The notes: generated by a model not told the origin, from the letters alone. A DNA stretch of 29,378 bases from Candidatus Bathyarchaeota archaeon (GCA_963775685.1 CAVZJV010000010.1:1-29378), one strand, 5' to 3'. Shown: positions 1,501 through 28,210, counted from the first letter of the stretch. Made by a program: numbers and translations.

Positions 1501-1575
1501 GGGCCGGTAGATCAGCCTGGTATGATCGCCGCGTTCGCAACGCGGAAGCCGCGGGTTCAAATCCCGCCCGGTCCA
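1501..1575 (+). tRNA. tRNA-Ala (anticodon CGC), no intron, CCA not encoded
   Basis: Acceptor stem GGGCCGG/CCGGTCC with the G3:U70 Ala determinant. Anticodon arm CCGCG-TTCGCAA-CGCGG (CGC at 1536-1538). T-arm GCGGG-TTCAAAT-CCCGC. Discriminator A1575. Confidence 0.98.
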
Positions 1576-1579
1576 TAAA

Positions 1580-1620
1580 GTGGTCTGAACCCTAAACGGT
1601 TCAACTCCCAGCGGTCCACT
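1580..1620 (+). repeat. Degenerate palindrome plus tRNA 3'-end-like unit directly after the tRNA
   Basis: GTGGTCTGAACCC-TAAA-CGGTTCAACTCCCAGCGGTCCACT aligns with GTGGTTTGAACCC-AATT-GGGTTCAAATCCCGCCCGGTCCACT at 17244-17285. Confidence 0.85.
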
Positions 1621-1640
1621 ACCTTTTGGTTTGGGAAATA

Positions 1641-2003
1641 TTACTTCTGAGGACGTTCGCGTTTGGCCTTGCGATTTAATGTTTTAATCGGCTCTAAGAT
1701 GCATGCTGAGTATGATCCTGGCACAATCAATTCCATGAACTCGGCGCGCAAAGCCTTTTCTTCAGGTATCTCGCTAAACCCGCTCTCCCAACCGTCAATA
1801 TTAGCTAAACTTTTAAAACCCCACAAGGCGGTGAATCCGCCGACGGAACCACCGTATTTGTGTCTGAGAACCCGCAGAGACGTTACACCCCTAAAGAGGA
1901 TTGGCTTCCTCTTCATCAAGGCAACTAGCTTTTTGCCCCACTCGTTATGCTCATCTAGTTTGTCAGGATTAACAACGTATGTTCTAGAGAGATAAACAGT
2001 CAT
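1641..2003 (-). CDS. Hypothetical protein, NIPSNAP-like dimeric alpha/beta barrel
   Basis: TYVVNPDKLDEH...W.FKSLA pattern, with a GGGGTG RBS upstream. It is the only gene between two tRNA-like repeats. Confidence 0.7.
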   Translation of the reverse strand: MTVYLSRTYVVNPDKLDEHNEWGKKLVALMKRKPILFRGVTSLRVLRHKYGGSVGGFTALWGFKSLANIDGWESGFSEIPEEKALRAEFMELIVPGSYSACILEPIKTLNRKAKRERPQK

Positions 2004-2058
2004 AACTGCACCCCAAAATATAAAATACTCAGAAGATTAAAAAAATTCCGCATAACAC

Positions 2059-2080
2059 GTTCAAATCCCAGCATCCCACT
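2059..2080 (+). repeat. Degenerate tRNA 3'-end-like fragment
   Basis: GTTCAAATCCCAGCATCCCACT, a T-loop plus acceptor-like sequence. Confidence 0.7.
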
Positions 2081-2254
2081 CTCAAATTAATTTCTCTAAA
2101 AAAGGTGGGTGAATAGTACAGAGATAGCGCGAGCTAAAGGATTTAATTTACCCCCACTATCCAGAATAAGTGAAATCAATAAGGAGTGCGCGATAGAAGT
2201 ATGAAAAACACTTCCCCCTTAAAGCCTCTGAATTAGAAGTTAATCGAACAGACG

Positions 2255-3027
2255 CTAAGCAAACCTGTTTTTAATACTATCTTTCAATCGGATTTTTGGG
2301 TTTTTGGTAACTTCTTTGACAAGATCGTTAAGATGAGCCAATTCATAATTCTTGCGTACCTTATTATAGAATTCTTGCTCTTGCGACGAGAGACCTTCTT
2401 AGCAATATAATTCATTTTACCTAGCCAGATGGATTCGGTGACGAAAGATTGAATTTCATTAATTAGAGGTAGGGGATCATAATCTAAAAAGGGCTCTATT
2501 GAAACGCTTGTTTTGTACCCGTTATTAAATGCCAACTTTAGTGAACTAATCCTTTCCGTAAAATTAGGTGCATTGGGTTCCCAAAATTTAAGCAATTGAT
2601 CTTCTTTTGAGGTTATAGTAAACCTGAATTGGATTTGGTTTTTGAAGCAATAAAAGCGATCGATTATTTCTTGAATTACCTTTATTCTAGGTTTGGTAGT
2701 TATCAGGACATCGTTATTAGCATTCAAGAGATTTTCTAGAACCTTAAAGCAAGCGCCTTTATACGGATCAAAATCGAAAATGTCATGGGTGCTTGGAAAC
2801 ATTATTCTACCTGATTTTTTGAGGTAGCTTTTATTTACCGAATTATCGTTAACTGACATTATCGCCCAGTTATTATCGGTAATCCTGTTAAACCTACGTG
2901 CCATCACTTTTGCGTAACAATAGCGGCAATCATTGTAGCAACCCTTGATACAATTAACGTTAGAGTCTGCCCACTCTTTTGTTCCTGTGGTTATCTTTAT
3001 TTTTTCATGTTTTTCCAACGATTGCAT
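2255..3027 (-). CDS. Radical SAM protein, DUF5131/SplB-like; frameshift near 2397
   Basis: GCYNDCRYCYA (CxxxCxxC), MFPSTHD, LITTKP, WEPNAP and SIEPFL motifs. The shifted frame continues ...NPKIRLKDSIKNRFA to TAG at 2255-2257. Confidence 0.85.
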
Positions 3028-3031
3028 AATT

Positions 3032-3411
3032 TCACTCTTGAGGCGTAAGAGGAATTAGAGGTTGAGGTGGGTTTATTTTAAGATTTTTAACAATTGTTGG
3101 CCAATTCAACCAGTAGCGTCTGTAACGCTGTGTTGACCAAGCATGCGGAACTCTTAACTCTTTGATATACCCTTTTGACCTCAACCAGACAAGGGTTTGG
3201 GAAATTTTGGGAACATCTCTTTCAAGCTCTCTGAAGTCAGGACATAGCACGTCGCAGACACCTCCTTCATGCTCAACAATAATCCTCCACAACATTTTCC
3301 ACTCCAGAGCTCTTCTATCATGTCCGGATGAAGAGTACCTATAACAATTGTTCCAATGGGATTAGCTGGTTCAGATGGCTCTTTTTCCCTCATAGCTTTT
3401 AACCAAGACAT
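3032..3411 (-). CDS. Hypothetical protein, possibly winged-helix; frameshift near 3297
   Basis: ORFs 3181-3411 and 3032-3295 join with one indel. ISQTLVWLRSKGYIKE...RRYWL is wHTH-like. It ends 4 nt before the radical SAM start. Confidence 0.6.
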
Positions 3412-3558
3412 ACAAAAATCAAATCCACTATTCTTCTAAATTCGTTCTTATCTTGCTAAAATAATGGACTCAAAACTAGATAATTAAGAATTGCCCATTG
3501 ATGAAAAAGACAAAGTTTTTGATTTACTGATTACGAGAACTAACTACTTTGCCTGTTT

Positions 3559-3787
3559 CTAAGTATCCACGCAATTTCGTAGGTGTGTTATTCTAGAATG
3601 GACAAATTCTTGTTCTGCAAGGGCTTTTTGTATTAGGTCTTGGATGGCTAGAGTTCATGTTGCCCTTAAAATATGGTTTTACTATCTTTTCGGTAAACTC
3701 TGTGAACAAAGAGGCTGGAACGTTATGAAATGTTAAGTCCATGAGGAACCCATTTTCCATTATTGCGTTCGCTGTTCTTTTTTTCAT
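3559..3787 (-). CDS. Small hypothetical protein, RHH-like; frameshift near 3650
   Basis: MDLTFHNVPASLFTEFTEKIVKPYFKGNMN joins AIQDLIQKALAEQEFVHSRITHLRNCVDT*. Confidence 0.65.
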
Positions 3788-3961
3788 GTTTACCAGTTAT
3801 TTCTAAGACAATGTGACCTTAAATAGTTTATGAAGTATTATGATTTATTAGTGGCGTTGAGGGAACGAACTCTGGAACTTGATAGTTGTATTACTTGTAG
3901 AAGAACCTGTCAGTGCTATTTCTTCTTAGAAGAACTTCTTCCAAATTCGATTTTTGAGGTT

Positions 3962-4111
3962 TTATTTAATTGATACTTTTGTGGTGGAGCGCTTACTTTT
4001 TCTTCAATTTCAGGTTGACAATCCCTGTAAAGCGGCATATCGAAGTTCTCATTTGAAATTTTGAATTCACCATTAGTTATGGTCTGCTTGCACTCTGCAA
4101 TAGTAGCCCAT
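3962..4111 (-). pseudogene. Decayed small zinc-finger-like gene
   Basis: MGYYCR-(indel)-CKQTITNGEFKISNENFDMPLYRDCQ gives CxxC...xxxC, with Tyr at the expected third Cys. Confidence 0.4.
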
Positions 4112-4330
4112 ATCTGTCAAGCATACTTGTAAGTATTTTAGCTTTAGGAAGTCAGGCATACCATATGCGAATGCAGATACTATCTCTTATCAGAGTGACC
4201 CATTCCAGGCACTGTTTGATCTTGGTTTGTTCCGTTTACGTGTTCGCTCATGGCTTTCAACGGCTCTTTCTGTTGCTTTAAAAGATGTTCTAGATTTAAG
4301 GTTAACGGTAAATAGGCAACAAAAAAGAGA

Positions 4331-4346
4331 CTTTTTACACAGTCTG
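4331..4346. mobile_element. Orphan IS1182-like terminal inverted repeat abutting a palindrome centre
   Basis: CTTTTTACACAGTCTG is similar to the MITE end GTTTTCACACAGCCTG (4563-4578) and is followed directly by AATTGGGTTCAAAC. Confidence 0.6.
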
Positions 4347-4371
4347 AATTGGGTTCAAACCCCGCACAGTC
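4347..4371 (+). repeat. Degenerate copy of the palindrome right half plus tRNA-Ala 3' end
   Basis: AATTGGGTTCAAACCCCGCACAGTC vs AATTGGGTTCAAATCCCGCCCGGTC (17257-17281): 3 mismatches in 25. Confidence 0.8.
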
Positions 4372-4449
4372 TGTTCTGCACAAAAAAACAGTCAACTGTA
4401 ACTATTTCGTTAGCCGCTGTGTTGCCCGAAGTAGGTTCTGAACCCATTT

Positions 4450-4578
4450 GAGCGTGTGTGAAAACCAATTTCAATTTCAAAAATTGCTAAGTTTATGTCA
4501 ATATGGTGGGGATTGATGATATGTTTTCGTATATAAGGAGCAATTTCTAAAACTAAATTCGAGTTTTCACACAGCCTG
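4450..4578. mobile_element. 129-bp MITE with IS1182-like ends and a 4-bp target-site duplication (ATTT)
   Basis: Ends GAGCGTGTGTGAAAAC and GTTTTCACACAGCCTG, with a perfect 11-bp inverted core at 4455-4465 and 4563-4573. ATTT at 4446-4449 and 4579-4582. Removing it restores TGAACCC-ATTT-GGGTC. Confidence 0.75.
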
Positions 4579-4582
4579 ATTT

Positions 4583-4607
4583 GGGTCTGAGACCCAGCAA
4601 CCCCATT
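4583..4607 (+). repeat. Palindrome right arm plus degenerate tRNA 3'-end-like sequence
   Basis: GGGTCTGAGACCCAGCAACCCCATT resembles CCCAGCATCCCACT in the 2059 copy. Its left arm GGTTCTGAACCC is at 4434-4445. Confidence 0.6.
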
Positions 4608-4695
4608 TTGTCCACTTCCTGACTGTTTCTTGCTCTTATTCAGAGGCTCTCTTGCAGTTTTAGTGTGAACAAAAAGGAAAGGAATTTCTCTCTAT

Positions 4696-5250
4696 TCAAG
4701 TTCTCGTGGCCAGTTCTTTTGCATAGTTTCGAATTGCACTCCAGTCTCTTGTGTCGTAGATTCCGTTTGTTTCCTTAAACCCTGCCGCCACCAATTGTTG
4801 TTTGACTATTGGCTTAGTCTTTCCTGCCCACCACGGCCATTTATTAAAGTCATAGACGCCGCCAAACAAGCCTAAAGCAACAGGTTGCAGGTTGTACTTT
4901 GCCGCTTTATCTTGAAGATACTTCTTTTTGCCCCTTTCAATTTCTTCAGGTTTTCCCTCATGCTCAGCTATTGCTTGTGCGCCCGAAGAAACAAAGAGTG
5001 CCACCTTCTTTGTCGCCAGCTCTTTCTGGAATTTCTTCAAAAAGTCTTCCGGTTCACCAGTCCACTTGTCGATTTGGATTCCGCTTCCAATAATAACAAG
5101 ATTGTATTGCGATATGTCTTTGACTTTTTCTTCTTTAGCGTTGACCACTTGGACTTCAATTCCTTCTTTTCTCAGTATAGCAGCGATTTCTTCAGATGTA
5201 CTGGCTGTTGCTCCGTACCTTGTACCATAAACGATCAAAGATTTTTTCAT
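4696..5250 (-). CDS. Flavodoxin domain protein (Flavodoxin_5/HemG-like)
   Basis: LIVYGTRYGATASTSEEIA FMN loop, YNLVIIGSGI, VALFVSSG, FGG and DTRDWSAIRNYA. Confidence 0.92.
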   Translation of the reverse strand: MKKSLIVYGTRYGATASTSEEIAAILRKEGIEVQVVNAKEEKVKDISQYNLVIIGSGIQIDKWTGEPEDFLKKFQKELATKKVALFVSSGAQAIAEHEGKPEEIERGKKKYLQDKAAKYNLQPVALGLFGGVYDFNKWPWWAGKTKPIVKQQLVAAGFKETNGIYDTRDWSAIRNYAKELATRT

Positions 5251-5681
5251 TAGCTACCACCTTCATTCTTTGCAGTTCTGAAATTGAAAATTACTGCGAC
5301 TAACCCGGCTGCGAATCCGAATAGTGGCGGAACAATGCCTCCACCGACAAGAAGCATTACAATTGAAAGCAGAACAAGAACTAAACCGCTGTATTTGCTT
5401 GAAATGAATTTGGCAGCCCAAACTGCAAGCAAGACTCCGACGATTATTGTCAATATGCCAGTTACCAGAAAGTTCGGAATAATACTCATCGCAGGTTCAC
5501 CACCTAATGCTGTCAAGCTGGGCCAAGCTTGAAACACAATGCTATTTGGAGCTACATTGCCTTGAAGCATTTCGCCTTGTCCATGAGATGCACCGCTTAG
5601 TCCTGTGAAAACGCCAAGGGCTATGGCTGCAATCTTAAGTTTATTCATGCTTTCACCTCCAGCAATCTTAAGTTTATTCAT
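5250..5681 (-). CDS. Integral membrane protein (~4 TM); alternative in-frame start at 5648
   Basis: Hydrophobic segments and HGQGEMLQGN...GGEPAMSIIPN. Overlaps both neighbouring genes at start/stop. Confidence 0.85.
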   Translation of the reverse strand: MNKLKIAGGESMNKLKIAAIALGVFTGLSGASHGQGEMLQGNVAPNSIVFQAWPSLTALGGEPAMSIIPNFLVTGILTIIVGVLLAVWAAKFISSKYSGLVLVLLSIVMLLVGGGIVPPLFGFAAGLVAVIFNFRTAKNEGGS

Positions 5682-5694
5682 GCTTTCACCTCCA
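5629..5694. repeat. Perfect 2 x 33-bp tandem duplication spanning the RBS and start codon
   Basis: GCAATCTTAAGTTTATTCATGCTTTCACCTCCA at 5629-5661 and 5662-5694. Confidence 0.97.
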
Positions 5695-5937
5695 TTTGCT
5701 TTTGTTGAGATGTTTTCGTGATGTCCTCCTCTCTAAGGTCCAAACGAAGAACACCGTTTTTTCCAACAACCTCCAAAACAACCCCTTCCGCAAACGTCGC
5801 TCGCAATAGTTCACCTATTGATCCCTCGATAAGGACGCTTTCGCTGGAACCGTCGGTAAGAGTGATGTTCTTCAGGTTTATTTTCGACTTAAGCTCAACA
5901 GAGAAAACCCGTCTTTATTGCATGTCTTTGTTTCCAT
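5678..5937 (-). CDS. Small beta-rich hypothetical protein, paralogue of 8528-8791; frameshift near 5910; absent from the ORF track
   Basis: METKTCNK..FSVELKSKINLKNITLTDGSSESVLIEGSIGELLRATFAEGVVLEVVGKNGVLRLDL aligns with FSIELTSKNHLKNVT...VLVEGTIGELVAATFAEDEILEVTGKKGVLRINL. Confidence 0.85.
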
Positions 5938-5974
5938 TTTAACTGCCTCACTTTATTGAGAGGGCGGCAATTGT

Positions 5975-5989
5975 GATTAGTTTTATTTG
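5975..5989 (-). promoter_or_regulatory. Conserved promoter/operator element of module 1
   Basis: GATTAGTTTTATTTG matches 8826-8840 at 14/15 in the equivalent position. It reads AAATAAAA (TATA-like) on the minus strand. Confidence 0.6.
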
Positions 5990-6046
5990 ATGCGGATGCT
6001 TAGAAGTAAGTAACGGAGCTAAGAATTTAGCAGCGGTGATTAAAAA

Positions 6047-6792
6047 ATGGAGAATGAAACGGGCATAGAGAAGTTGTTTTTTGAGCTTGCAAGCGAAAGT
6101 AGACTCAGTATATTGCGTACGCTGCAGATTGAAAATCTCAAAATGCAGGAAATTGCACGCAGGTTGGATTTAACTGCGACAGAAGCGTTTAGACAATTGG
6201 AACGATTAAGCGCTGCTTTGCTCGTTCAGAGGCAACCTGATGGCTCATTTGCCATAGCTGAGTACGGCAAGATCGTGTTGCAGCTCTCTTCTTCCTTAGA
6301 ATTTGTCTCTAACCACAAGGATTACTTCTCGACACATGACGTAATGCGGCTTCCTGTCCAATTCGTGAATAGATTAGGCGAGCTTTCGCGATCGAAATTG
6401 GTGATGGACACCATTGAGAACCTAAACTTTGCTGAACAGGCGTTCATAGAAGCAGAGCAGTTTGGGTGGGGAATGGCAGAAGGCACTATTCCTGAACACA
6501 TGATTCCATTAATGGATGAACGAATCCGAAAAGGAGTAAATTTCAAGTTTCTCATTCCTGAAAATCGTCTTTCTGCAAACGTAAGTCCAACCTCAGTAGT
6601 AAAGAATCTTGAAGGAAGAGGTCTCTCTGATATTCCAGCTATAATTGTTTTAACTGAAAAAGTGGCAGCTATATGCTTTCGACAAGTTGGAGGAAGAGTT
6701 GATTATGCCGGCTTTTTCGGAGTTGATCAAGTGTTCATAACTGGGTTAAGGACTTGTTTCTTTACTACTGGGAAAAAGGAAAGCGAGCTTGA
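6047..6792 (+). CDS. Winged-HTH transcriptional regulator (ArsR-like HTH plus DUF1724-like domain); frameshift near 6736
   Basis: [14 protein letters not shown]...MQEIARRLDLTATEAFRQLERL. The shifted frame ends [17 protein letters not shown], like the paralogue's [16 protein letters not shown]. Confidence 0.88.
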
Positions 6793-6893
6793 CGCACATA
6801 AGGGTCTTCCCCGTACTTGAACCCATTTTGTTCTTGCCTGAGTACACATGTACAGGGGCGATAACCGTTGGACTCGCCAAATTCGCTTTGTTT

Positions 6894-7340
6894 TTAGAGT
6901 TTAGCTATTTCTCTGGCCCGTTTCTTTGCTGCAGCTAACTCTTCTGCATCTGGGTGCCCCCGCTTAACAAACCCCAAGCCCCCGCCAAAACAGCTAAAAT
7001 GATTATTGAGCATTCGTTGACCATTAGCATCTAAAGCGCCCCCTTTTGTGTCGATGACGTTTTTTTCAGCGACGTTTTTGCCCCAGCCAAAGCAAGTCAT
7101 GAATAACGCAAATTGCTTCTTACCATTTAGACGCATTGTTTGAAGATAGCTAAGAAGATCCTGGTGTGGTTGCCCCTTGTATATGCCTGTGCCAATGAAC
7201 ACTGTATCATAATCATCGATGCTAACGGCAGAAGAATCGGAGGTTATCTGAAGGCATGGACAGTTAAGTTCTGATGCAATTGCTTCTGCAACTTTTTTGG
7301 TGTTGCAGCTTCGCGTTGAATATACCACTCCAGGTTTCAC
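6894..7340 (-). CDS. Flavodoxin domain protein (appears fused to the upstream gene in ORF 6894-8108)
   Basis: VVYSTRSCNTKKVAEAIA, YDTVFIGTGIY and GHPDAEEL motifs. It has its own GGAGG RBS (7350-7354) and a GTG at 7340. Confidence 0.8.
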   Translation of the reverse strand: MKPGVVYSTRSCNTKKVAEAIASELNCPCLQITSDSSAVSIDDYDTVFIGTGIYKGQPHQDLLSYLQTMRLNGKKQFALFMTCFGWGKNVAEKNVIDTKGGALDANGQRMLNNHFSCFGGGLGFVKRGHPDAEELAAAKKRAREIAKL

Positions 7341-7344
7341 TTTT

Positions 7345-8108
7345 TCACGCCTCCAAGTTGGCGTTTTTATCTGTGTCAGCGTTTCCACTTTTGGCTGGCT
7401 TCGGCTTATCTGAAGAAGCCGTCTACCAACCATCAGCGTCCAAACCATCATAAGCAAACCATTGATTGTCCAAATCGCAAGACCTAAACTAGACCCAAAC
7501 AACCCAAACACGTTAGCCACAATCCCCACGATGGCTACGGGTTTACTGAATGTTTTGTTTCTCAGCATAACAATGGATACTATTATGCCCGCCAACGAAC
7601 CGAGGACAAACGTCATAATCATTCCTGTTCCCTGTTCGGTAACCATGACTGCTTGCCCCGCCGCCAAAAGCATGGACTTCTGCACTTCTGAAGTGGCAAT
7701 AGCATATTGATTGCTGAGGTTAAGCATAGCAAAGGCGTTGTTGGAAGCAAAGTAGATGGTTGTGCCTATGAAGTAAAGTGCGGTGCCAATCGCCATGAGC
7801 GATTCGCTTGTCCGCCGGAGCAGAAAATATAACCCCATGAACATCAACACGCCCAGAGGGAAGAAGAGGGTCTCGAATATACCCAGGTTTGCAAGCCCCA
7901 GGAGAGGATTAGTTTGCAGAAGCGTGAACCATCTTATTACGCTTGATGGTATGGACGTTAGACCAGACCCGCCGCTGGCTTCAATAGCAACTTCGATTAA
8001 GCTGAAAACTACGATAAGAATTGCTGCAACGCCTCCAATCTTGCATAGGCTTTTCCATCGTGAGTCTACAGTTGTATCATTTAATTTAGATTTGAGTAGC
8101 ATTGTCAT
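7345..8108 (-). CDS. DUF4386-like multi-pass membrane protein
   Basis: WKSLCKIGGVAA, WFTLLQTNPLLGL, FAMLNLSNQYA and LLAAGQA, with ~6 TM segments. Probable true end ...NLEA* (TGA 7345-7347) in a shifted frame. Confidence 0.75.
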
Positions 8109-8114
8109 TGTTTT

Positions 8115-8531
8115 TCATCTCGCCTTTGGAGTTGCTTTTTGATGTTGAGCCGATTGTCTGACTGACCATGCAAAGTATGCCAATGCAATAGATGCTATCA
8201 CGACCAATCCTTCTAGAATCGAATAGCCCAATGGAGCAATTTCTGGCTGCATCAAGTGTGTTTGGTCAGCAATAACTTGAAGAATGTTGAGAATAGCTGC
8301 AAAGACCCCAAGTCCGCCGCCAATGTTTTTGCATTTATAAATCATTGGAATCGTCGCAATTTCAACAATTAATATGATTAGGAAAAATACCAACCAGCAA
8401 GATGAAACGTCAGTTTGTGGGCGAGGTTCAAAGCCAATCGGAGAAGGAACCTCGAGAACAGTCAGTATAAGAATTACAATGATAGTGGCAACCACTGCTC
8501 TTCTTGCAGAAGATAATGTTAATGCCTTCAT
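8115..8531 (-). CDS. Small integral membrane protein (~4 TM)
   Basis: Four hydrophobic stretches; ATGA overlap with the upstream gene. Confidence 0.8.
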   Translation of the reverse strand: MKALTLSSARRAVVATIIVILILTVLEVPSPIGFEPRPQTDVSSCWLVFFLIILIVEIATIPMIYKCKNIGGGLGVFAAILNILQVIADQTHLMQPEIAPLGYSILEGLVVIASIALAYFAWSVRQSAQHQKATPKAR

Positions 8532-8791
8532 TGGTTTTTCCCCTTCGATTGGTTGTCTTCAATGTTTTTTTGTATGTCAGTTTGGGCCAGATTTATTCTT
8601 AGAACACCCTTTTTCCCCGTGACTTCTAGGATTTCGTCTTCAGCAAAAGTCGCCGCTACCAATTCGCCGATGGTTCCTTCAACAAGCACATTGTCGTAGG
8701 AGCCGTTGGCTGAGGTGACGTTCTTTAGGTGATTTTTTGAAGTGAGCTCAATGGAGAAGAAGCGTTCCTTGGTTTGATTGTTATTTTCCAT
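8528..8791 (-). CDS. Small beta-rich hypothetical protein, paralogue of 5678-5937
   Basis: Clear paralogy to the module 1 gene; GAGG RBS. Confidence 0.85.
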   Translation of the reverse strand: MENNNQTKERFFSIELTSKNHLKNVTSANGSYDNVLVEGTIGELVAATFAEDEILEVTGKKGVLRINLAQTDIQKNIEDNQSKGKNQ

Positions 8792-8825
8792 ATTTTTTCC
8801 TCAAAAAGGTATAGGTGAGAATGCA

Positions 8826-8840
8826 GATTACTTTTATTTG
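8826..8840 (-). promoter_or_regulatory. Conserved promoter/operator element of module 2
   Basis: GATTACTTTTATTTG matches 5975-5989 at 14/15. Confidence 0.6.
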
Positions 8841-8895
8841 CGTTCGATGTGCAACAATATACAGCGTTGTAAACTGGTTAGCATTGGTGATGAAG

Positions 8896-9639
8896 TTGGA
8901 GAACCAAGAAGGAATTGAGAAACTATACTTTGAGCTTGCAAGCGAAAGCAGATTTGCCATCCTTCGAGAGTTAAACAGAAAAAATGGCAAGATGAAAGAA
9001 ATCGCAGGCCAACTAAACTTAACCACTACTGAAACATTTAGGCAACTGCAACGTTTAAACGAAGCTTTATTTGTGGTGAAACAACCTGACGGCGGCTACA
9101 CCATCACAGAGTACGGCAGATTCGTGCTGCAACTTTCCACTTCCTTTGAATTCCTCTACAAGCATAGGCAATACTTTTCCACCCATGACTTTCGACGGCT
9201 GCCATACCAATTTCAGAATAGAATAGGTGAGCTTTCTTCAGCATCCCTGGGAACCGACACAATGGAAAACATCAATTTAGCCGAACGCATCACGCGGGAA
9301 GCAGAACAGTACATGTGGGGCGGAGGAATGGAGCAGTCGCTAAACATCAGCTCAATCCTTATGGAAAGCATCCCTAAAGGAGTGAAATACAAGTTCCTTT
9401 TTCCCCAACGGTTTATTAATCCCAGACCATTGCCGCCCAAGATGGCAGGCGCTATTGAGTGGAGAAGCTTTGAGGACTTGCCAGTAAACATTGTATTAAC
9501 TGAGAAAGAGGCAGGTATTAGTTTTTGTCTGGTGGAGGGAAAAGCGGATTATGTGGGTTTTGCAGGGAAAGATCCGGTGTTTTTGGGCTGGGTTAAAGAC
9601 TTATTTTGCTATTATTGGGAAAAAGGAAAACGCTTATAG
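8896..9639 (+). CDS. Winged-HTH transcriptional regulator, paralogue of 6047-6792; start TTG 8896 or ATG 8890
   Basis: [22 protein letters not shown]...YFSTHD...NRIGELS, with a GGTGA RBS. Confidence 0.9.
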
Positions 9640-10359
9640 ACTGATGGCTCCTGGACCACAGTATTCTGTTAATTTTACCCAGAAAACTTGGATATCTTCT
9701 ATGGTAAGGAAGGTCTGACCATACTCAATATTTTTTACTGCCGTCATATCTGTTTCTGAGAATGCTTTGATGCAGAAATATGCTGCTGGAAATCCCGCCA
9801 TCATGCCTTGATGCCAGAAATTCTCGCGCACACCTTCCGACATTTTGGCGTTTGGTCTATTGTATCCGTAGAACGGCATCGAGAGATCTTTAAAGAATTG
9901 TGCACGGTCAGCAACGACGTTTGCGCGTAATTGGTCAAAAACTTGTATTGGTAACCCTCCAGGATTATCATCTGTTTTAACCATTAAAGGTGAAACCGAG
10001 CCAATAAGTACAATTTTTGCCAATCTTTTGGTTCCATGGCGACCTATGTATCTTGTAACTTCGCCCCCTCCAGTTGAATGCCCAACCAGAATTACATTTT
10101 TTAAGTCAAGCTTTTCTATGAACTCACTAAGATCGTCTGCATAAGTGTCCATGTCATTTCCGTTCCAAGGTTGACTTGAGCGTCCGTGCCCTCGTCGGTC
10201 ATGTGCAATACAGCGGTAACCTTTAGGCACCAGATAGAACATTTGATCTTCAAACGCATCTCCATTTAGAGGCCAACCATGACTGAAAACAACTGGTTGT
10301 CCTTTGCCCCAATCTTTATAATAAATCTTCGTTCCATCTTTGGTAATAATATTAGGCAT
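9634..10359 (-). pseudogene. cpo: Non-heme chloroperoxidase (alpha/beta hydrolase), C-terminally truncated near 9740
   Basis: [37 protein letters not shown] and AFSETD. Similarity then stops in all frames, so the catalytic Asp and His region is missing. Confidence 0.88.
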
Positions 10360-10815
10360 TTCAATAAACTTCTATTCCAACAAAGGAGCATGAATATTTT
10401 AGCTTTTGTGACTTCGGATCAACTACAACAACAAAACTTTGAAAAACCCAAATAAAAAACACCCCCCTAACCACAGTTCTAAGACAAAAAAAGTCAAAAT
10501 CCAACTCCCAACCTACACCCCAGCCTACTACAAGAAATCAAAAACTACATAGAAGAAACAGCAAAACAATATAACAAACCTAACATGCATTACTATCGCA
10601 ATATCAATTGTTACAATACTTATCTTTAAGGTCGTCTGAAGCTCCCACTCGGGCTTATGCAAAGCCACTCCACCGGTTAATTTCCGTTTCCAAAGCTATT
10701 CTATGGAATTCAGGTATTCGATTACTGCACGAAAATGATTTAGATATAGATTAATATTTTTAACTTGTTTAATCTCGATGGGATTATGTTGGAATAGTCT
10801 TTAAAGATGTGATTT

Positions 10816-11182
10816 ATGATGGATTGGATAGATGAATGGATATCTGTTGGCAGTTTATTAGATTCAGAGAATGTTGATGAACTTAAAGAAGACAATATTG
10901 ACATCATAATAGATGCCTAGGGTATTATTTGACCGTCATGGGCTCGGATATACTCCTATTATTGAAAAGGTTCTAAAGGTAGGAGAAGTTTTAACTTGTA
11001 TCTCAAATATGAAAGTCAAAGTTCTAATTCATTGTCTGTGGGGGATAGATAGAACACCTTTCGTAGCTATGGTATATGTAGCTAGAAAGTATAATAAAAA
11101 AAGCACGGATGCTTATGCATATGTAAAGGAAAAACATCCTTGAACCGTCTATCATTGGGATTGGATTAAAATGTTAAAGTGA
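10816..11182 (+). pseudogene. Dual-specificity/protein-tyrosine phosphatase family gene; frameshift near 10918 and in-frame TGA at 11141
   Basis: MDWIDEWISVGS...IDIIIDA joins RVLF...VLIHCLWGIDRT (HCxxGxxR)...AYAYVKEKHP*TVYHWDW. Confidence 0.8.
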
Positions 11183-11398
11183 TAAATATGAGTGAAGAGC
11201 GCGCCAGTTAGTTGCCAAATTCAGATTTTGATAGACTTTATTAGGTTTCATGAGTTAGAGGACAGTTTTGGTTTTCGCATCTGTCTTTTACAAGTTTGCA
11301 GTAACCACCTTTCCCGTATCTGCACGCCTTTTTGCGCTGCCCTGCAAAAAAATTTTACACTGGAAAAAAGTGGAGACCTGAAATTTTCCGCAGATTCA

Positions 11399-11725
11399 TT
11401 ATGTGTTATGGGTTAGCGCTACAATCAGCCCAATTATTGCGCCAAGTAAAACCAGCAAGCCGCCCAGTCCACCGCCGATAAGTCCCACAATTATCAGCAC
11501 TATAGCCCACACAAGAGTAGTAACGCTTCTTGCACCAACGATCGCTATGACACCGCAGATTAACATTACAATTCCACTGTACCCAAAAGAGTAGACACTC
11601 CAATAGAAGAATGAGGGGCCTCCGAATCCTATTGATAATAAACTCAGCAACCCAAAGATTACCAGCAGAATGCCACCGACAAGCGCTAAGACATAAGCCA
11701 CTTGCCCTATAGAAGTTCGAGCCAT
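11399..11725 (-). CDS. Small Gly-rich membrane protein
   Basis: Three to four TM segments with GGGLGGLLVLLGAIIGLI; GGAGGAG RBS. Confidence 0.85.
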   Translation of the reverse strand: MARTSIGQVAYVLALVGGILLVIFGLLSLLSIGFGGPSFFYWSVYSFGYSGIVMLICGVIAIVGARSVTTLVWAIVLIIVGLIGGGLGGLLVLLGAIIGLIVALTHNT

Positions 11726-12087
11726 TTGATCCGTTCTCCTCCTGCCTGGATACTATTTCGGCAGGTAGCACTTATAAAATTTTTTAGGTTTATCTTTGCC
11801 TTTAGTTTCATGATGAACAAGTAACGCCTCAGCTTTAACTTCAGGCTCCACGATGGCAACTGCAGCTGCCACATCAACAACAGATAATTCAGCAGAAGCA
11901 TCTATTCTTTCGAGAAAATCAAGATTCAAACGCTGCATCTCCTCAGAAGAGAGCTCAACTACCTCACCTGGAAAAAACTCAACGTTTTAGACGAATAGGC
12001 AAAAACGTTTTCCACCCATATTTAAGAAAATAATCGTAGAAAACTTGAAATTAAATAACCACATTAATACTTTAGTTGGAGAATAAA

Positions 12088-12402
12088 ATGATTAACTGTG
12101 AAAGTTGTGGAGCTGACCTGTCTGAAGGGGCCAAATTCTGTTCAAATTGTGGGGCTCCCGTAGGCATAAAAGAAGAGTTTACAGTCCGCTCAGAGGATCT
12201 TGTAGCGAAAATCAAGGAACTGATTCATGAGGGAGACGTATCAAGAATCATCGTGAAAGACGAGAACAGCAAGATCCTTTTAGAAATACCAGTTTGGGCT
12301 GGCATTGTAGGAACAATATTAGCTCCTTGGCTGGCAGCTTTAGGCGCAATAGCAGCTTTAGCAACAAGATGCACCATCACAGTTATTAGGCAAAAAAGCT
12401 AG
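12088..12402 (+). CDS. Zinc-ribbon plus DUF4342 domain protein
   Basis: CESCG...AKFCSNCG followed by LVAKIKELIHEGDVSRIIVK...LLEIPV...APWLAALGAIAAL. GGAG RBS before ATG 12088. Confidence 0.88.
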   Translation: MINCESCGADLSEGAKFCSNCGAPVGIKEEFTVRSEDLVAKIKELIHEGDVSRIIVKDENSKILLEIPVWAGIVGTILAPWLAALGAIAALATRCTITVIRQKS

Positions 12403-12539
12403 CTAAAACAAAGCCTTTGAAAGATTACAGAAACGATGAAGACCTATTTTTATCCTCAATTGGGCAAATCTGAACCTTAAGGCCTTAAACTCAAATTGAT
12501 AAATGAGAGCTCCAAAACTGTTAGTGAAGATGATTAAGT

Positions 12540-12937
12540 ATGAAAGGATATTCAACATCAATCGAAGAAGAGACGAGAAAAAACTCTGATTTTAGAAGAG
12601 TGCTTTACACAGGCAAGTATAGCCAGCTTGTTTTGATGAACCTCAAACCCATGGAAGGAATAGGCTTGGAAACCCACACAGAAACAGACCAGTTCTTCAG
12701 ATTTGAGGAAGGCGAAGGCAAAGTTTCATTGACGGGATCGAGCACACAGTCAAAGACGGCGACGCAATAATAGTGCCTGCGGGAGCGCAGCATAACGTTG
12801 TCAACACCTCCAAAAACTTGGAGCTCAAACTCTATACAATCTATTCACCCCCAGAGCATCAAGACAAGGTCGTCCGCCACACCAAAGCAGAAGCCGAAAC
12901 TTCGCCGGAAGATTACGACGGCAAACCTACGGAGTAG
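12540..12937 (+). CDS. Cupin domain protein; frameshift near 12726
   Basis: NSDFRRVLYTGKYSQLVLM...IGLETH...DQFFRFEEGEG joins IDG...DGDAIIVPAGAQHNVVNT...LKLYTIYSPPEH...DGKPTE*. Confidence 0.9.
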
Positions 12938-13159
12938 CAGGCGCCAAATTTCTTCTTTCTTCTTTAAGTTCCTCCTTGTTTATTTTATTTTGGAAAAATA
13001 ATTAAGTTACTATGTCTTCTGCTTGTTGATTTCCTGAGTTTTGTTTCTAACCAACAAAGATTGGATTTTTGAAATAAGAGTGACTTTGTTGTCGCTTTGT
13101 TACAGTCACATATACTTAAGAAAGCTTGAACCCGCTAATAGATTGTTAAGGTGTAAGTC

Positions 13160-13348
13160 ATGCGCAAAAAAGAAACACAGCAACCTTCCCACACGCTTGG
13201 AGCGGCGTCATCTCAAGAGATACCAATTAGTGGAATAGAGCCAAGCCAGATTCCTTGTCCAGACTGCGGCAAAACCTTCAAGACCCATTCAGAAATGGAG
13301 AGACACAGAGATACAACGCACCACGAAACAAAAGGACACGAGGAATAA
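13160..13348 (+). CDS. Small C2H2-type zinc finger protein
   Basis: CPDCGKTFKTHSEMERHRDTTH; AAGGTG RBS. Confidence 0.8.
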   Translation: MRKKETQQPSHTLGAASSQEIPISGIEPSQIPCPDCGKTFKTHSEMERHRDTTHHETKGHEE

Positions 13349-13602
13349 CCACTAGTTAAAAAACAACATGGACCAACGACTATGCATTTATTGACATAAA
13401 AGTGAGTAGAAAAACCCCTCCCCACAGTTTGAAAAGAGCTTTTCGAAAACAAGCCATATGCCCCTCTCCTTAAATATAGAATCAACTTGAAATGAACCAA
13501 TTGATAGCTCTTCTGAATTGCGTGAACTACTTTTATTAAATACTTAAACTCCAAAATATGATCAATTAGACAAACTTATATGCGAATCATAATAATATTC
13601 GA

Positions 13603-13869
13603 TTATGCAGAGTGAAATTCAAGGCGAACTATTGCAGGCAAAAAAGGAAGCTTAAAAGATGCATTTTGCTGAAGGTCACTCAAAGAAGCCAAAATTCGGT
13701 AAACTTCTGCACGTGCGATTTTTGAAACCTTGGAAATTGTAACCGCAGGCGCTGATTTCTGTTGTACAAGGGTTAGATATACCTTGGCTTGGTTTGATGT
13801 AAGTCCAACCTCTATTAAACCAGACATTAAACCTTGGCCCATTTTTCCTTTCCCCCAAAACCTACTCAT
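13603..13869 (-). pseudogene. Truncated TrmB-family regulator (HTH only)
   Basis: LIEVGLTSNQAKVYLTL...ISKVSKIARAEVYRILASL, then similarity is lost. Confidence 0.75.
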
Positions 13870-14068
13870 AACTTATAGTTCTTAAGGTTTATCGTACTCA
13901 GAGTTGAACCAAATTTTCTATTCTACAATAGTTCAGATCAATTAATCATCCTATGGGTGCATTTGTGAGGATATTCCGTCCTCGCTAGTTGTTAAATTAA
14001 AAATGAATTATACTCTGTAAACCATACACAGTGATGTGTATTAAAATAAAAGAAAGGAAAAAAACAAA

Positions 14069-16744
14069 ATGAAAATACTAAAAAATAAAGTAACAACTAT
14101 GGCAATAATTATACTCTTCCTTCTTTCAATGTCAGTTTCAATAACACTAACGCAAATCACTAGTGCACATACACCTCCATATCAGATTCCTACATACGCC
14201 TTCCTAAGCATCTCTCCAAATCTTGTAGGCGTAGGCCAAACGATTAATGTAAACATGTGGATAAACTTCGTTCCTCCGACAGCAGGCACTTTGTTCGGTG
14301 ACAGATGGCAAAACTTCAAAGTTGATGTCATAAAACCTGATGGAACCAACGAAACACTTGGACCCTTCAGCTCAGATGACGCGGGCTCAAAACATACAAC
14401 ATACTCTCCTAGTACCCCCGGCAATTACACTTTTGTTTTCTACTTCCCAGGGCAAACAATAGCAGGAGCCAATCCACCTCCAGGAGGATTTTCTTCTTCT
14501 GTAGCAGCAACCATCGGTGACTACTATCAACCAAGCACGAGCGACCCCGTGACTATAACTGTGCAAGACGCACCAGTACCTGGTTATCCATCTAATCCAC
14601 TTCCGACACAATATTGGGAGCGACCTATAAACTCTATGAACACTGATTGGTATCAATTAGGCGGAAACTGGCTTGGACTCAAATCGAATTTCGGTGGTTC
14701 AACTGGACAATACAATGTCGCTTCAAACTTCAACCCTTATTCACAAGCACCAAACACAGCACACGTATTATGGACAAAACCCGTGGCTGAAGGCGGAATG
14801 ATGGGCGGTGAATTCGGAGGCACCGAACAAAGCAGCTACTACGCAACCTCACAATACGAAAACAAATTCAGTCCGGTAATCATTAACGGGATACTCTATT
14901 ATACTTTCTATCCAGGTTCTTCCACCAGTCCTGCTGGAACAGTTGCCGTTGACTTGCGCACGGGAAAAACACTTTGGACATCTGACCTTATGCGAACATT
15001 ACCCGATTCAAGACTTCCACAGAGCACATCCTCAGAAGGACCCACAACTGTTCTGAAATGCGGTCAAATCCTGAACTATGTAACGCCAAACCAATTCGGG
15101 GGTTTAACATATCTCTGGACAACTGGAACTCCAGTTGAAGTCGCCAAAGCGACCAATATCCGTTCAGGATCAACAACTTGGAATATGTTTGACGCTTTGA
15201 CTGGAAACTATATTCTAAGCTTAGTTAACGGAACAGCAGTAGGCGGCTTAGGCGGTTCAGCACTAACTGAAGATGAAGGTGGTAACTTGATAGGCTACTA
15301 CGTAACCTCAAGCAGACTTTACCAATGGAATTCAACATGGGCAATAATAAACTATTGCAATGCAACTGGCTTTAATACTAACCTATGGGCGTGGAGACCA
15401 CCACAAGGTGCCATAATACCCTTCGACTATGGAGTACAATGGTCCGTGACTATTCCTACAACAATCACCCAAAACGGAGTTACTGGAACAATCAGCCCAG
15501 CAATGACTATAAGCACCGGAGTTAGCCAAATCGTAGACGGAGTAGTAATAATAAATAACGTCGGCAACGGTGCATGGCAACCTGGCTGGACAGCCGAAGC
15601 AGGATTCAGTGCAACAGACGGAGCTTTGCTATATTTAAAGAATCAAACCCAGTCACCTTGGACAAGCATCTTACCTGGAGCCGCCGGCAATGGAGTGTAC
15701 ACTGAATACACAAGAGAATCACAATCATGGAGCGGATACAGCTTAACGACAGGCCAGAAAGTTTGGGGCCCAATAAAACCCGTTGAAGACTCATGGTCTT
15801 TCTATGACTGGTGGAGTTCAATTGCGGCCTACGGAAACCTATACGTCTGGACTTTAGGAGGACACGTATACGCTCTGAACATTACCACAGGTGTTGTCCA
15901 ATGGATATGGCAAACTCAATCAAGCGGTTACGAGACTACTTACGGAAACTGGCCAATATGGGTCTTTAACGACGGAGTAATGGGCGATGGCAAACTCTAC
16001 GTGTGTGGCGGACATGAATATAATCCACCCGTCTTCAAAGGCGCTAAACTCTATTGTCTCAACGCAACCACTGGAACAGAAATTTTCGAGACCTTAGGCT
16101 TTGACGTTGGAGGTCCCCCAGCTATCGCAGACGGACAATTGGTAGTTAAAAATTCCTATGACAACCAAATATACGCATATGGTGTGGGACCGAGTAAAAT
16201 AACTGTTAATGCTCCAAACGCTGCCGTTACAACAACAGGTCCTTTCACAATAACCGGTAGAGTCACAGACATTTCAGCAGGAGCTTCCCAATCCGCAGTT
16301 GCAGCTAACTTCCCCAATGGATTACCAGTTGTATCTGATGACAGCATGTCACAATTCATGGAAGCCGTATACCAGCAACAATCAATGCCTAATAATATCA
16401 CCGGAGTTCCAGTGGCTTTAAGTGTTCTCGATTCAAACGGTAACTACAGAACAATCGGTACTGCAACAACCAACGCCCTAGGAGACTTTAGTTTTGCATG
16501 GACACCAGATATACCTGGTGACTTTACAGTATATGCTACCTTCGCAGGAACACAATCCTACTATGGATCTACAGCGTCAACCGGTATGCATGCAGGCGTA
16601 CCTGCAGCAACACCAGCACCGACTCAAGCGCCAATACAATCAATGGCTGACCAATACTTCCTTCCATCAGTTGCAGCGATAATTGTTGTTATCATAATTG
16701 GATTCGCAGTGCTTGCATTGTTGATGCTCAGAAAAAAGCCATAA
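14069..16744 (+). CDS. Secreted, membrane-anchored PQQ-type beta-propeller cell-surface protein
   Basis: Signal peptide; repeated AVDLRTGKTLW, ALNITTGVVQW and CLNATTGTEIF blades; Ig-like domains; Pro/Thr linker; C-terminal TM plus RKKP. Confidence 0.9.
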   Translation: MKILKNKVTTMAIIILFLLSMSVSITLTQITSAHTPPYQIPTYAFLSISPNLVGVGQTINVNMWINFVPPTAGTLFGDRWQNFKVDVIKPDGTNETLGPFSSDDAGSKHTTYSPSTPGNYTFVFYFPGQTIAGANPPPGGFSSSVAATIGDYYQPSTSDPVTITVQDAPVPGYPSNPLPTQYWERPINSMNTDWYQLGGNWLGLKSNFGGSTGQYNVASNFNPYSQAPNTAHVLWTKPVAEGGMMGGEFGGTEQSSYYATSQYENKFSPVIINGILYYTFYPGSSTSPAGTVAVDLRTGKTLWTSDLMRTLPDSRLPQSTSSEGPTTVLKCGQILNYVTPNQFGGLTYLWTTGTPVEVAKATNIRSGSTTWNMFDALTGNYILSLVNGTAVGGLGGSALTEDEGGNLIGYYVTSSRLYQWNSTWAIINYCNATGFNTNLWAWRPPQGAIIPFDYGVQWSVTIPTTITQNGVTGTISPAMTISTGVSQIVDGVVIINNVGNGAWQPGWTAEAGFSATDGALLYLKNQTQSPWTSILPGAAGNGVYTEYTRESQSWSGYSLTTGQKVWGPIKPVEDSWSFYDWWSSIAAYGNLYVWTLGGHVYALNITTGVVQWIWQTQSSGYETTYGNWPIWVFNDGVMGDGKLYVCGGHEYNPPVFKGAKLYCLNATTGTEIFETLGFDVGGPPAIADGQLVVKNSYDNQIYAYGVGPSKITVNAPNAAVTTTGPFTITGRVTDISAGASQSAVAANFPNGLPVVSDDSMSQFMEAVYQQQSMPNNITGVPVALSVLDSNGNYRTIGTATTNALGDFSFAWTPDIPGDFTVYATFAGTQSYYGSTASTGMHAGVPAATPAPTQAPIQSMADQYFLPSVAAIIVVIIIGFAVLALLMLRKKP

Positions 16745-16766
16745 GATGAAAAACACAATGAAAACA

Positions 16767-16791
16767 ATTTTCCTCCCTTTTTTAGTTTTTT
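16767..16791 (+). terminator. Pyrimidine/oligo-T tract, putative archaeal terminator
   Basis: TTTTCCTCCCTTTTTAGTTTTTT-type tract about 25 nt after the stop codon. Confidence 0.5.
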
Positions 16792-17243
16792 GGAAAATTA
16801 AGTTGGGGCTGAGTAGGCTCTAGATAAAATTTAACTGTTGAAGCTGCAATCAAAAGAGGTTTTGCATTTCCTCTTTTCTCCTATTTCGGTTCCAGAGCCT
16901 CAGCTAGCCCAGAACCCAAGGCTACTATAAATCAGCTTTCATACATTCCGCTTGCTTAGTCCCAGCGTCCACAATAATTATTCCGATTAAAGTTACACCA
17001 AAATTTTTCGGTTTCCGAACCCATTTGGGGCTGCAACTCGGCGGACTTATTCTCTTTTTGGTTAAATGCGGGCGAGGTTTCAGATCATAGTTCAACTCGT
17101 CAAATAGCATCGTTCAAAGAATTTAGGTGTAGGGACTCATACCCGTTTGGGGTTAAGTCCGGTACGACTTATCCTTGTTGCAAAAAAGTTTGTTTAAGTG
17201 ATATTTTCAGGCTATTCAAATTAATTTTACTCTTTTAGTCATT

Positions 17244-17285
17244 GTGGTTTGAACCCAATTGGGTTCAAATCCCGCCCGGTCCACT
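17244..17285 (+). repeat. attR-like site: perfect 22-bp palindrome overlapping a 23-bp copy of the tRNA-Ala 3' end
   Basis: TTTGAACCCAATTGGGTTCAAA (17248-17269) is self-complementary, and 17261-17283 is identical to 1553-1575. Confidence 0.93.
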
Positions 17286-17607
17286 TAGCAACATTTTTGA
17301 TTTTCAAATGTTCAAGTTCGTCATTGTTTTCAGAATTTAACCCTTGTAATTTGGTTATTGCAGATTTCAATTTGTTAGATCCTTTTTTAGCGTTCTATCG
17401 GCATAGACGAAGAAGCATTGAAAAAGTATAACCCGTAAAAGAGCTACAGTTTAGGAATTGTGTCAGGGTTTTATACTCACAAGAACGTCTGATTTGAAGA
17501 TATGATACCCGATTAATCAAATAGTCGAGCTATCAAATTGGAAAAAAAGGTTATACCGCAAAGAAATTGAGTGCGTGCTACTTTAATGGTTTGTCAAAAC
17601 TCGGTTT

Positions 17608-18426: not shown

Positions 18427-18500
18427 GCAGCTGCCTCTTGTTATATGATAGGGATGAGGGTTCTTTTAAGCCGTTTGCGCCTACCCAAGATTATCCTTGC

Positions 18501-28003: not shown

Positions 28004-28210
28004 ATGGATAGTGTGAAATTACGACTTATCTTAATGGGCTGCATACTTACCGTGATAGGTGTTATCCTGATTATAGCAAGGGGTCTCTCAGCACCTTTGG
28101 TTGGAATACTCGTAATAGGAATATTATTAGCCACAGTTGGAGTTGTTTGGAAGCCGCGGAAAAAAGAAAACAACGTCCAAAGTGACAGCATTCAATCAGA
28201 TTTACGATAG
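28004..28210 (+). CDS. Small two-TM membrane protein in the ABC operon
   Basis: Two hydrophobic helices and a basic tail; starts 14 nt after the permease. Confidence 0.75.
   Translation: MDSVKLRLILMGCILTVIGVILIIARGLSAPLVGILVIGILLATVGVVWKPRKKENNVQSDSIQSDLR

Follow-up and report, generated by a model that had tools for sequence, protein, structure and literature searches.

Genomic islands that carry no integrase of their own have been described in several forms. Cis-mobilizable elements (CIMEs) are islands flanked by attachment (att) sites and devoid of recombination genes, which are thought to be moved by the integrase of a related element and to accrete in tandem. Integrative mobile elements exploiting Xer (IMEX) are integrase-less DNA with a palindromic 11-6-11 site. 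The terms CIME and accretion-mobilisation are used for bacteria (PMC6323972; PMC5704250), and IMEX elements, of which TLC-phi is an example, have been described as exploiting Xer at dif (PMC9226527). In archaea, arrays of elements that re-use one tRNA site are known (PMC6563490). Furthermore, stem-loops have been reported as the target of IS1272, an insertion sequence (IS) of the IS1182 family (PMC5678879). In the present study, we analysed contig C10 of a Candidatus Bathyarchaeota archaeon genome bin (GCA_963775685.1 CAVZJV010000010.1:1-29378; 3.06 Mb in 14 contigs), the whole of which, 29,378 nt, is referred to here as the window. Behind its tRNA-Ala(CGC) gene lies a 15.7-kb island, between two copies of the tRNA end. 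With moderate confidence, we assign this island to a family of integrase-less elements (E-type elements) that integrate at the tRNA core, are probably moved in trans, and were later eroded by deletions and ISs.

The last 23 nt of the tRNA (1553-1575) recur without a mismatch at 17261-17283 (23/23 nt), and a second island, of 11 kb, in the relative G101 is bounded in the same way (24/24 nt). The tRNA-Ala 3′ end is the left copy of this core repeat, attL. The right copy lies in a palindromic unit, U5, in which the arm GTGGTTTGAACCC is followed by AATT and then by the tRNA 3′ end. U5 holds a perfect 22-nt palindrome that occurs once in the 3.06-Mb genome, and as single-stranded DNA it folds at -10.1 kcal/mol (z -3.19), a value equalled by 2 of 200 shuffles. 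It can also be read as two 11-nt inverted arms around a 6-nt spacer, TGGTTTGAACC / CAATTG / GGTTCAAATCC, which is the geometry of Xer/dif-type sites, with 9 of 11 arm positions symmetric. At the left end of the island, U1 has TAAAGT before the arm GGTCTGAACCC, and a spacer of 5 nt separates this arm from a right half that resembles the T-arm and has a tail like that of tRNA-Pro(GGG); the arm starts four bases past the tRNA and matches the U5 arm at 12 of 13 positions, and the U1 region is 91% identical to a sequence of G102 over 389 nt.

The first-pass annotation of this DNA had described a family of units, each a tRNA T-arm and acceptor end preceded by an inverted copy of the T-arm. Such a unit is real, as seen from the exact 23-nt repeat, the palindrome at U5 and the enrichment over shuffled sequence. 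For the window, 0.82 matches of the arm pattern (≤1 mismatch) and 2.59 of the T-arm pattern (≤2 mismatches) were expected, whereas 6 and 9, respectively, were found; in neither case did any of 100 shuffles reach the observed number. Genome-wide, the exact arm pattern occurs twice, both times inside the window. The seven units that we accepted (starts 1580, 2058, 4347, 4433-4607, 17010, 17128 and 17244) all lie on the + strand, as does the tRNA, and the single orientation claimed earlier is thereby upheld.

A scan of relatives, which had been proposed as a check, found the site recurring beside different cargo. The census pattern (GGTYTGAACCC, 4-5 nt, GGTTCAA; the arm is therefore intact by design) matched 38 times in 26 of the 101 genomes from the genus, against no match of the reversed control, and outside the genus in 2 of 286 genomes of the class. 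With ≤2 mismatches, 53 of the 101 genus genomes match and more unit types appear, many of the rows being the same palindromes on the opposite strand. Viral contigs yielded two matches, with unrelated flanks and no tRNA, and the unit profile (nhmmer) found no further two-armed site in the present genome.

The flanks of all 38 units were read. Four units stand directly after a complete tRNA-Ala(CGC), as TAAxGY plus arm, and their right halves are not alanine-type, being Pro-like in two cases and of a CAYAGAG type in the other two. Alanine-type right ends account for thirty units, composed of a conserved left flank (two main kinds), the arm, the spacer and the alanine tRNA end; past them the sequence is unrelated, and the cargo varies. 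One or two units of another type lie ~75-100 nt upstream of right-end units, in the window likewise. Two right-end units are followed by TAATGY plus arm, which is the layout expected of a circular form or of two tandem elements. The succession core, TAAxGY, G(G/T)TCTGAACCC is present at all six left junctions, namely those of the window, L033, L040 and L043 after the tRNA and those of L037 and L041 after the core of a right-end unit. Thus, the element has two conserved ends and variable cargo, and the G101 island shows the same two ends around different cargo.

In the 30 alanine-type units, ATCCC, the 5 nt past the searched pattern, shows 0 changes in 150 positions, whereas the next 11 nt, the acceptor tail, show 61 in 330 (18.5%; Fisher 3e-11, for genomes that are related and not independent). 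In the 38 units, the spacer takes 20 different forms and TTGT precedes the arm 25 times, and the left arm is nearly constant whichever right half it accompanies. Judged from this sequence variation, the T-arm part of the site appears to be under constraint while the tRNA-derived tail decays. In the window and G101 islands, both of which have their two ends on one contig, the tails are undecayed (0/11 changes against the 18.5% average), which indicates recent exchange via the tRNA core. Since the bounding repeat is the core while the spacers of the end units differ (TAAAC and AATTG in the window, GTTTC and AATTG in G101), the exchange would have occurred in the tRNA core and not at the palindrome centre. 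The integron-like exchange at the unit that had been suggested earlier does not agree with these two features.

A recombinase was sought in the island by several routes. PF00589 and PF16795 have no match on C10 (20 and 4, respectively, elsewhere in the genome), tblastn with the 17 integrases of this genome found no match in the window, and a Pfam scan of 16 island open reading frames (ORFs) found no recombinase. All 3 PF00589 matches of G101 are on another contig, and Pfam of 10 ORFs of its island finds no recombinase. Hence neither island encodes an integrase, and both have intact att on either side without recombination genes, as cis-mobilizable elements do. The same 17 integrases found no tblastn match in the islands of G101, G116 and G109 or on six further contigs with right-end units, except in G016, where a decayed integrase lies 800 nt past a unit and is part of a separate element. 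The absence of a nearby recombinase noted in the first-pass annotation is therefore confirmed for this contig. Because E-type elements carry no recombinase, their enzyme would have to come from elsewhere in the cell, and the trans-acting enzyme postulated earlier was a reasonable inference for an island of this kind.

These observations can be arranged in the following scheme. Positions 1576-17260 would be the eroded body of one or more members of the E-type elements, which would be genus-specific and integrative. Their insertion at the tRNA-Ala(CGC) 3′ end would take place by site-specific recombination, the crossover lying in the 23-nt T-arm/acceptor core, with the tRNA as attL and U5 as attR. 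The palindrome would be part of the attachment site of the element itself; once circular, the element would have the arm GGTYTGAACCC, an inverted T-arm copy, on both sides of its core, and arm, 6-nt variable spacer and T-arm together would make an 11-6-11 site of the kind bound by tyrosine recombinases. The cargo would be host-like and free of recombinases, the enzyme being presumably supplied from elsewhere in the cell. In separate later events, an IS1182-family element and its miniature inverted-repeat transposable elements (MITEs) would have homed into the 4-nt palindrome centre (U3, U4), and ordinary deletions would have reshaped the island as the last step.

Integrase-less islands linked to tRNAs are usually dismissed as dead remnants. 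The two islands described here, which come from two species, share their conserved ends, and the core repeats of both are undecayed. Selection appears to maintain the palindromic part of the site, in contrast to the drifting tRNA-derived tail. Together, these features point to trans-mobilised islands as a living system in an uncultured archaeal genus. If this is so, it provides a defined DNA site (arm, 6-nt spacer, T-arm) for tracing the enzyme, and it would explain the movement of host-like metabolic and surface genes in this group. In the literature searched, which was too limited to call the arrangement unpublished, we found no account of an att site at a tRNA end with an inverted T-arm next to it. 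More tentatively, and with doubt on our part, the islands might form a class with a dif-like 11-6-11 site in which the T-arm of tRNA-Ala(CGC)/tRNA-Pro(GGG) serves as the right arm, with a trans recombinase and an IS1182 element specialised on the loop. A host Xer-like enzyme or the integrase of another element would then insert the islands, letting them pile up at the tRNA end.

Several findings weigh against trans-mobilised elements that exchange in the tRNA core. The arm lies outside the block of tRNA identity, which leaves its role in a core crossover unexplained, and the census pattern required the arm, so that constraint on it is not measurable from these units. Left flanks and right halves are mixed in several combinations, which would also fit exchange inside the unit. 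Many right-end units are on contigs other than the tRNA's, and G014, whose genome is a single contig, has ~325 kb between tRNA and unit. C10 itself represents a variant strain in a metagenome bin and has a foreign base composition over its first 750 nt. No enzyme that moves E-type elements was found. A Xer-like integrase of 290 aa (103.8 bits with the XerA model, under its cutoff of 220) stands directly after this tRNA in the loci of 6 of 30 relatives, in elements of 5.5-7.6 kb, and as a stump at the twin locus on contig C14. The attR of its elements is without the arm in five of five cases (G016, G068, G046, G065, G022), the integrase (at least 54% identity) is present in 2 of the 26 unit-bearing genomes, and units are present in 2 of its 10 holders.

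The 290-aa integrase uses the same core and could in principle act on arm-bearing elements, which finds no support here. The present genome has the stump only and thus no helper element of the same specificity, and the enzyme was rejected as a helper as it does not co-occur with units. The first-pass annotation had named one outcome that would undo its proposal, namely that each unit is the attR of an ordinary decayed integrase-encoding element seen intact in relatives; the arm-less attR of such elements speaks against this. The sole large integrase of G101, of 403 aa, has homologues at ≥60% identity in G116 and G109 only. These three genomes all bear units and are possibly close kin; the 403-aa enzyme was rejected as well, being absent from the present genome at E 1e-40 and having no unit nearby. 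In G109:C5 (L093), a 340-aa primase-like protein (~12906-13928, - strand) with a small-subunit primase domain and part of a large-subunit domain adjoins tRNA-Ala, which suggests that an element of plasmid or viral origin is stacked there.

The features of the window are collected in Table 1.

Table 1. Features of the island and its surroundings, numbered from the first nucleotide of the window.
Feature	Position	Strand	Evidence or remark
tRNA-Ala(CGC)	1501-1575	+	ARAGORN; Rfam RF00005, 63.3 bits; sole tRNA gene in the window
U1, conserved left end of element	1576-1620 (unit 1580-1620)	+	nhmmer E 1e-8
120-aa ORF between U1 and U2	1641-2003	-	no family match; G102 keeps part only
U2, armless tRNA-Pro-like 3′-end fragment	2058-2080	+	~18/23 positions like U1 right half
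Radical-SAM-like protein (DUF5131/SPL), cargo	2284-3027	-	
Segment common to C14 twin locus	3314-4259		blastn 95.7% and 91.4%
U3, outer end of truncated IS (TTTTTACACAGTCTG), AATT, T-arm-like arm	4332-4373	+	
U4, palindromic unit with 129-nt IS1182-derived MITE (4450-4578) at centre	4433-4607	+	ATTT on both sides of the MITE
Recombinase-free cargo	4696-16744	both	Pfam, tblastn
Degenerate unit: arm ..CCGAACCC, spacer ATTT, GGGG.. right half	17010-17050	+	includes 17017-30
Unit of other type: GGGACTCATACCC, GTTT, GGGGTTAAGTCC...	17128-17175	+	missed in the first-pass annotation
U5, element right end and attR: arm, AATT, 23-nt tRNA core (17261-17283)	17244-17285	+	nhmmer 5e-15
Right breakpoint of the 13-kb C14 deletion	17316-17324		shares GTTCG..CAT with 4242-4251

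Taken singly, the units are of different kinds. The copies had been treated as one family, which they are not: U1 and U5 are the conserved element ends, U3 and U4 derive from IS1182, and U2 is armless and shows no fold. The right halves of U1 and U2 resemble the 3′ end of tRNA-Pro(GGG), not the Ala end. As for two weaker arms reported earlier, the one at 17017-30 falls within a real, degenerate unit, whose fold is not significant, whereas the one at 6817-6833 is probably a chance match: it runs into the stop codon of ORF 6047-6820, its fold is weak (z -1.27), and the paralogous gene ends without an arm of this kind. The notion that units punctuate gene blocks did not survive: they stand at element ends and at IS insertion points, and the 12 kb of cargo from 4.7 to 17.0 kb contains no unit that holds up. 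A repetitive extragenic palindrome (REP)-like abundance was also rejected, with one strict palindrome of the unit type in the genome against three for the control and 6 occurrences of ACCCnTTTGGGK against 8 for the control. Outside the island, the intergenic stretch 28210-28236 is 81% like the left part of the unit at 17133-17159. Two more tRNA-Ala 3′-end fragments are found remote from tRNA-Ala genes: C14:466829-466852, which is without a palindromic arm and lies 300 nt from an IS1182 copy, and C14:1803208-1803251, which is a degenerate complete unit.

The segment that the window has in common with the C14 twin locus ends in an N-terminal stump of an IS1182-family transposase gene (- strand, start codon near 4250). 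The N-terminus of the stump matches the 486-aa transposases at C14:453613-455073 and C14:467194-468654, and 4209-4358 matches the upstream region and first codons of their genes. From this IS, the window has retained the stump and the outer IS end, 4332-4346. The transposase of this family has the Pfam domains DUF772 and DDE_Tnp_1_6, and its G109 copy scores 357.2 bits on NCBIfam NF033551 (cutoff 270), which places it in IS1182. A 15-nt IS end, TTTTCACACAGTCTG (≤2 mismatches), forms the terminal inverted repeats: it is present at both ends of three full copies and at MITE ends. The U4 MITE has sisters at C14:477196-477326 and around C5:144884. The earlier description of U4 as a palindrome split by a MITE is right as to the 129-nt MITE and its ATTT flanks. 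The MITE and its relatives also occur elsewhere in the genome.

All the elements tabulated in the genome with both ends (3 of 3 full IS copies, 2 of 2 MITEs) sit between inverted arms. Each shows the same order of inner end, four bases and T-arm-like arm, the arms differing among copies. The four bases flanking IS copies are repeated as CATT/CATT and ATTT/ATTT, others being imperfect, and in none of the 3 + 2 elements was a duplication seen outside the arms. The unit at 17128-17175 is empty in the window and its G109 orthologue holds a full IS1182 copy in its centre; conversely, G016 has an empty unit of a type that is IS-occupied in the present genome. Because of these empty and filled units, together with the stem-loop targeting of IS1272, the simplest reading is that the IS and MITEs insert into the 4-nt centre of pre-existing palindromes. 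In the metagenome run X3, a single contig (depth 2.3) joins an IS end and AATT to the T-arm, which hints only weakly at an alanine-type unit with an IS in its centre.

C10 corresponds, as a variant with 95-98% identity, to C14:145563-157622, and the bin therefore contains either two strains or a large duplicated region. C14 is without the window's ~4248-17321, a 13-kb indel whose junction lies at the short common string GTTCG..CAT. Its edges fall ~96 nt before U3 and 31 nt past U5, off the units, and the difference is an ordinary deletion that removed attR. In a second difference, 1576-3313 of the window replaces C14 146379-147493; on the left it starts exactly where the tRNA core ends, and on the right it breaks off inside a 149-aa ORF, of which C14 has the intact form. 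Thus, one of the four strain-level breakpoints is at the attachment site (the tRNA core) and three are off the units and off the core, contrary to the earlier expectation that units coincide with breakpoints between strains. The search for an empty site covered 30 relatives, in all of which the post-tRNA flanks differ. In the closest species, G022, a 1.3-kb remnant of an integrase element follows the tRNA, and the far flank gene stands ~5 kb further on, 6 kb from the tRNA, and is inverted. Compared with window 17603-18480, the genes that lie downstream of the tRNA in G022:C5 (L109) form a block of inverted orientation with respect to the tRNA, and an inversion between attachment-site copies fits this arrangement. 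A homologue of the far flank gene in 19 relatives has no tRNA within 1.5 kb. The contigs of four out of five metagenome runs (X1-X4; shares ≤0.09 in all five) contain neither a 1575-17284 joint nor a circular junction, an absence that proves nothing.

The cargo at 4696-16744 comprises flavodoxin-domain proteins, two paralogous winged-helix regulators, an alpha/beta hydrolase, a DUF4342 protein, a TrmB-like regulator and an 891-aa beta-propeller surface protein. The product of 2284-3027 matches NCBIfam 'radical SAM mobile pair protein B' weakly, far under the cutoff. The winged-helix regulator genes (6047-6820 and 8815-9639) are 64% identical over 771 nt and each lies beside flavodoxin-domain genes; these regions are a duplicated module within the island. 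An exact 33-nt tandem duplication (5629-5694) stands at the start of ORF 5250-5681, and one metagenome contig is without one of its copies. The bin matches the archaeal small-subunit rRNA model over its full length, with two copies, on C14 and C13. Positions 1-750 of the window have 62-64% G+C, against 33-52% in the following 2 kb and 41.5% contig-wide; they code for a CoA-transferase fragment, have no counterpart at the C14 twin locus and are possibly a chimeric contig end or foreign DNA.

Other explanations of the island have to be considered. The first-pass annotation had taken the palindromic units themselves as recombination sites, where a trans-acting enzyme exchanges DNA near the unit centre and stacks cassettes behind tRNAs in a loosely integron-like way. 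The occurrence of the R1-type flank with both an alanine and a CATAGG tail, and of the tRNA-side flank with both Pro-like and CAYAGAG tails, would suit such exchange, as would the conservation of arms and T-arm around a hypervariable spacer; however, both two-ended islands repeat the tRNA core and have differing spacers, and neither the 13-kb indel nor the right end of the C14 replacement breaks at a unit. Short arrays of units do occur at element ends in several genomes, yet in the window 12 kb of varied, two-stranded cargo lies between units, and U3 and U4 are IS ends. Likewise, the gene at 1641-2003 is enclosed by a pair of like right halves, of which U2 is armless, and G102 has U1 and part of the gene without U2. 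We consider an exchange centred on the units rather unlikely.

In a second alternative, the units would be scars, the arm being a functionless passenger from one ancestral attP, and the island would be an ordinary decayed integrase element. The apparent conservation of the arm would then stem from recent common descent and from the search pattern. It is true that the pattern forced the arm to be intact, that the relatives are not independent samples and that integrase genes at this tRNA do decay (a stump in C14, stop codons in G016, a 1.3-kb remnant in G022). Nevertheless, ATCCC, which the pattern did not force, has 0/150 changes against 18.5% in the adjoining tail, the two islands with a perfect core are both without integrase, and the integrase elements at this tRNA have an arm-less attR. 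A history of mere decay is therefore improbable.

A third possibility is that the 11-6-11 palindrome acts as a dif-like site, cut at the spacer edge beside the T-arm by a XerA-type enzyme of the host or by another element's Xer-like integrase. In its geometry, the unit corresponds to dif as described, where two inverted repeats of 11 nt flank a 6-nt spacer and cleavage takes place at the ends of the spacer (PMC8371274); in the unit, the identity with the tRNA sets in at the right edge of the spacer or one base inside it. The elements are without integrase, and the integrase found at this tRNA in relatives is Xer-like, its XerA score of 103.8 bits being under the cutoff of 220. Against such cutting, the spacers differ from the tRNA sequence at the corresponding place, a search with the unit profile gave no second two-armed site in the genome, so that a chromosomal dif, if any, would be unlike the unit, and units are found in 26 of 101 genomes, whereas Xer should be universal. 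The likeness is one of site geometry, and we regard this possibility as quite unlikely. Finally, an integron is rejected as no tyrosine recombinase is on the contig and the multi-gene cargo blocks are on both strands, a split SSV-type integrase as the contig has no PF16795 match and, by eye, no frame is open through U5 or U1, and a casposon as the arms are direct repeats, not inverted; no Cas1 was found among the 16 ORFs scanned with Pfam, a six-frame Cas1 search not having been made.

In comparison with known systems, the island thus returns to the elements considered at the outset, with the preferred explanation being an integrase-less element that exchanges in the tRNA core. Islands made by tRNA-targeting tyrosine integrases share with it the integration at a tRNA 3′ end, the bounding tRNA-end repeat and the re-use of the site that leads to arrays (PMC6563490). 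Unlike them, the island described here has no integrase, and it has an inverted T-arm copy beside the core at both ends. It resembles CIMEs in being integrase-less and flanked by att sites. CIMEs, however, are known from streptococcal integrative and conjugative elements, whereas the present host is archaeal and the units show no co-occurrence with the one integrase type of the same core. With IMEX elements, it has in common integrase-less DNA and a palindromic 11-6-11 site; here, the target is a tRNA end with long core repeats, and it is by geometry that the two are likened, host dif likeness aside. Integron attC sites are also imperfect palindromes between cargo that depend on an enzyme encoded elsewhere, but there is no integron integrase, attI or promoter in our case, the repeats are of the tRNA core, and the units are found only at element ends. 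The 'suicidal' integrases of SSV, which are split on integration, would explain a tRNA-adjacent island without an intact integrase (PMC7253208), in contrast to the present finding of no open frame through U5/U1 and no PF16795 on the contig.

The closest counterpart of the insertions in the palindrome centres is IS1272, also an IS1182-family transposase system that inserts in inverted-repeat structures and not in a fixed sequence (PMC5678879). In contrast to IS1272, which replaces the stem-loop and makes no duplication, the arms are kept here and the 4-nt loop is found on both sides of the insert. In the IS1272 report, an outcome that retains the arms is depicted solely as an alternative pathway (PMC5678879). 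Our IS1182 result thus represents a natural case of hairpin-loop-directed insertion that keeps the stem, a pathway that was hitherto hypothetical in the IS1272 literature.

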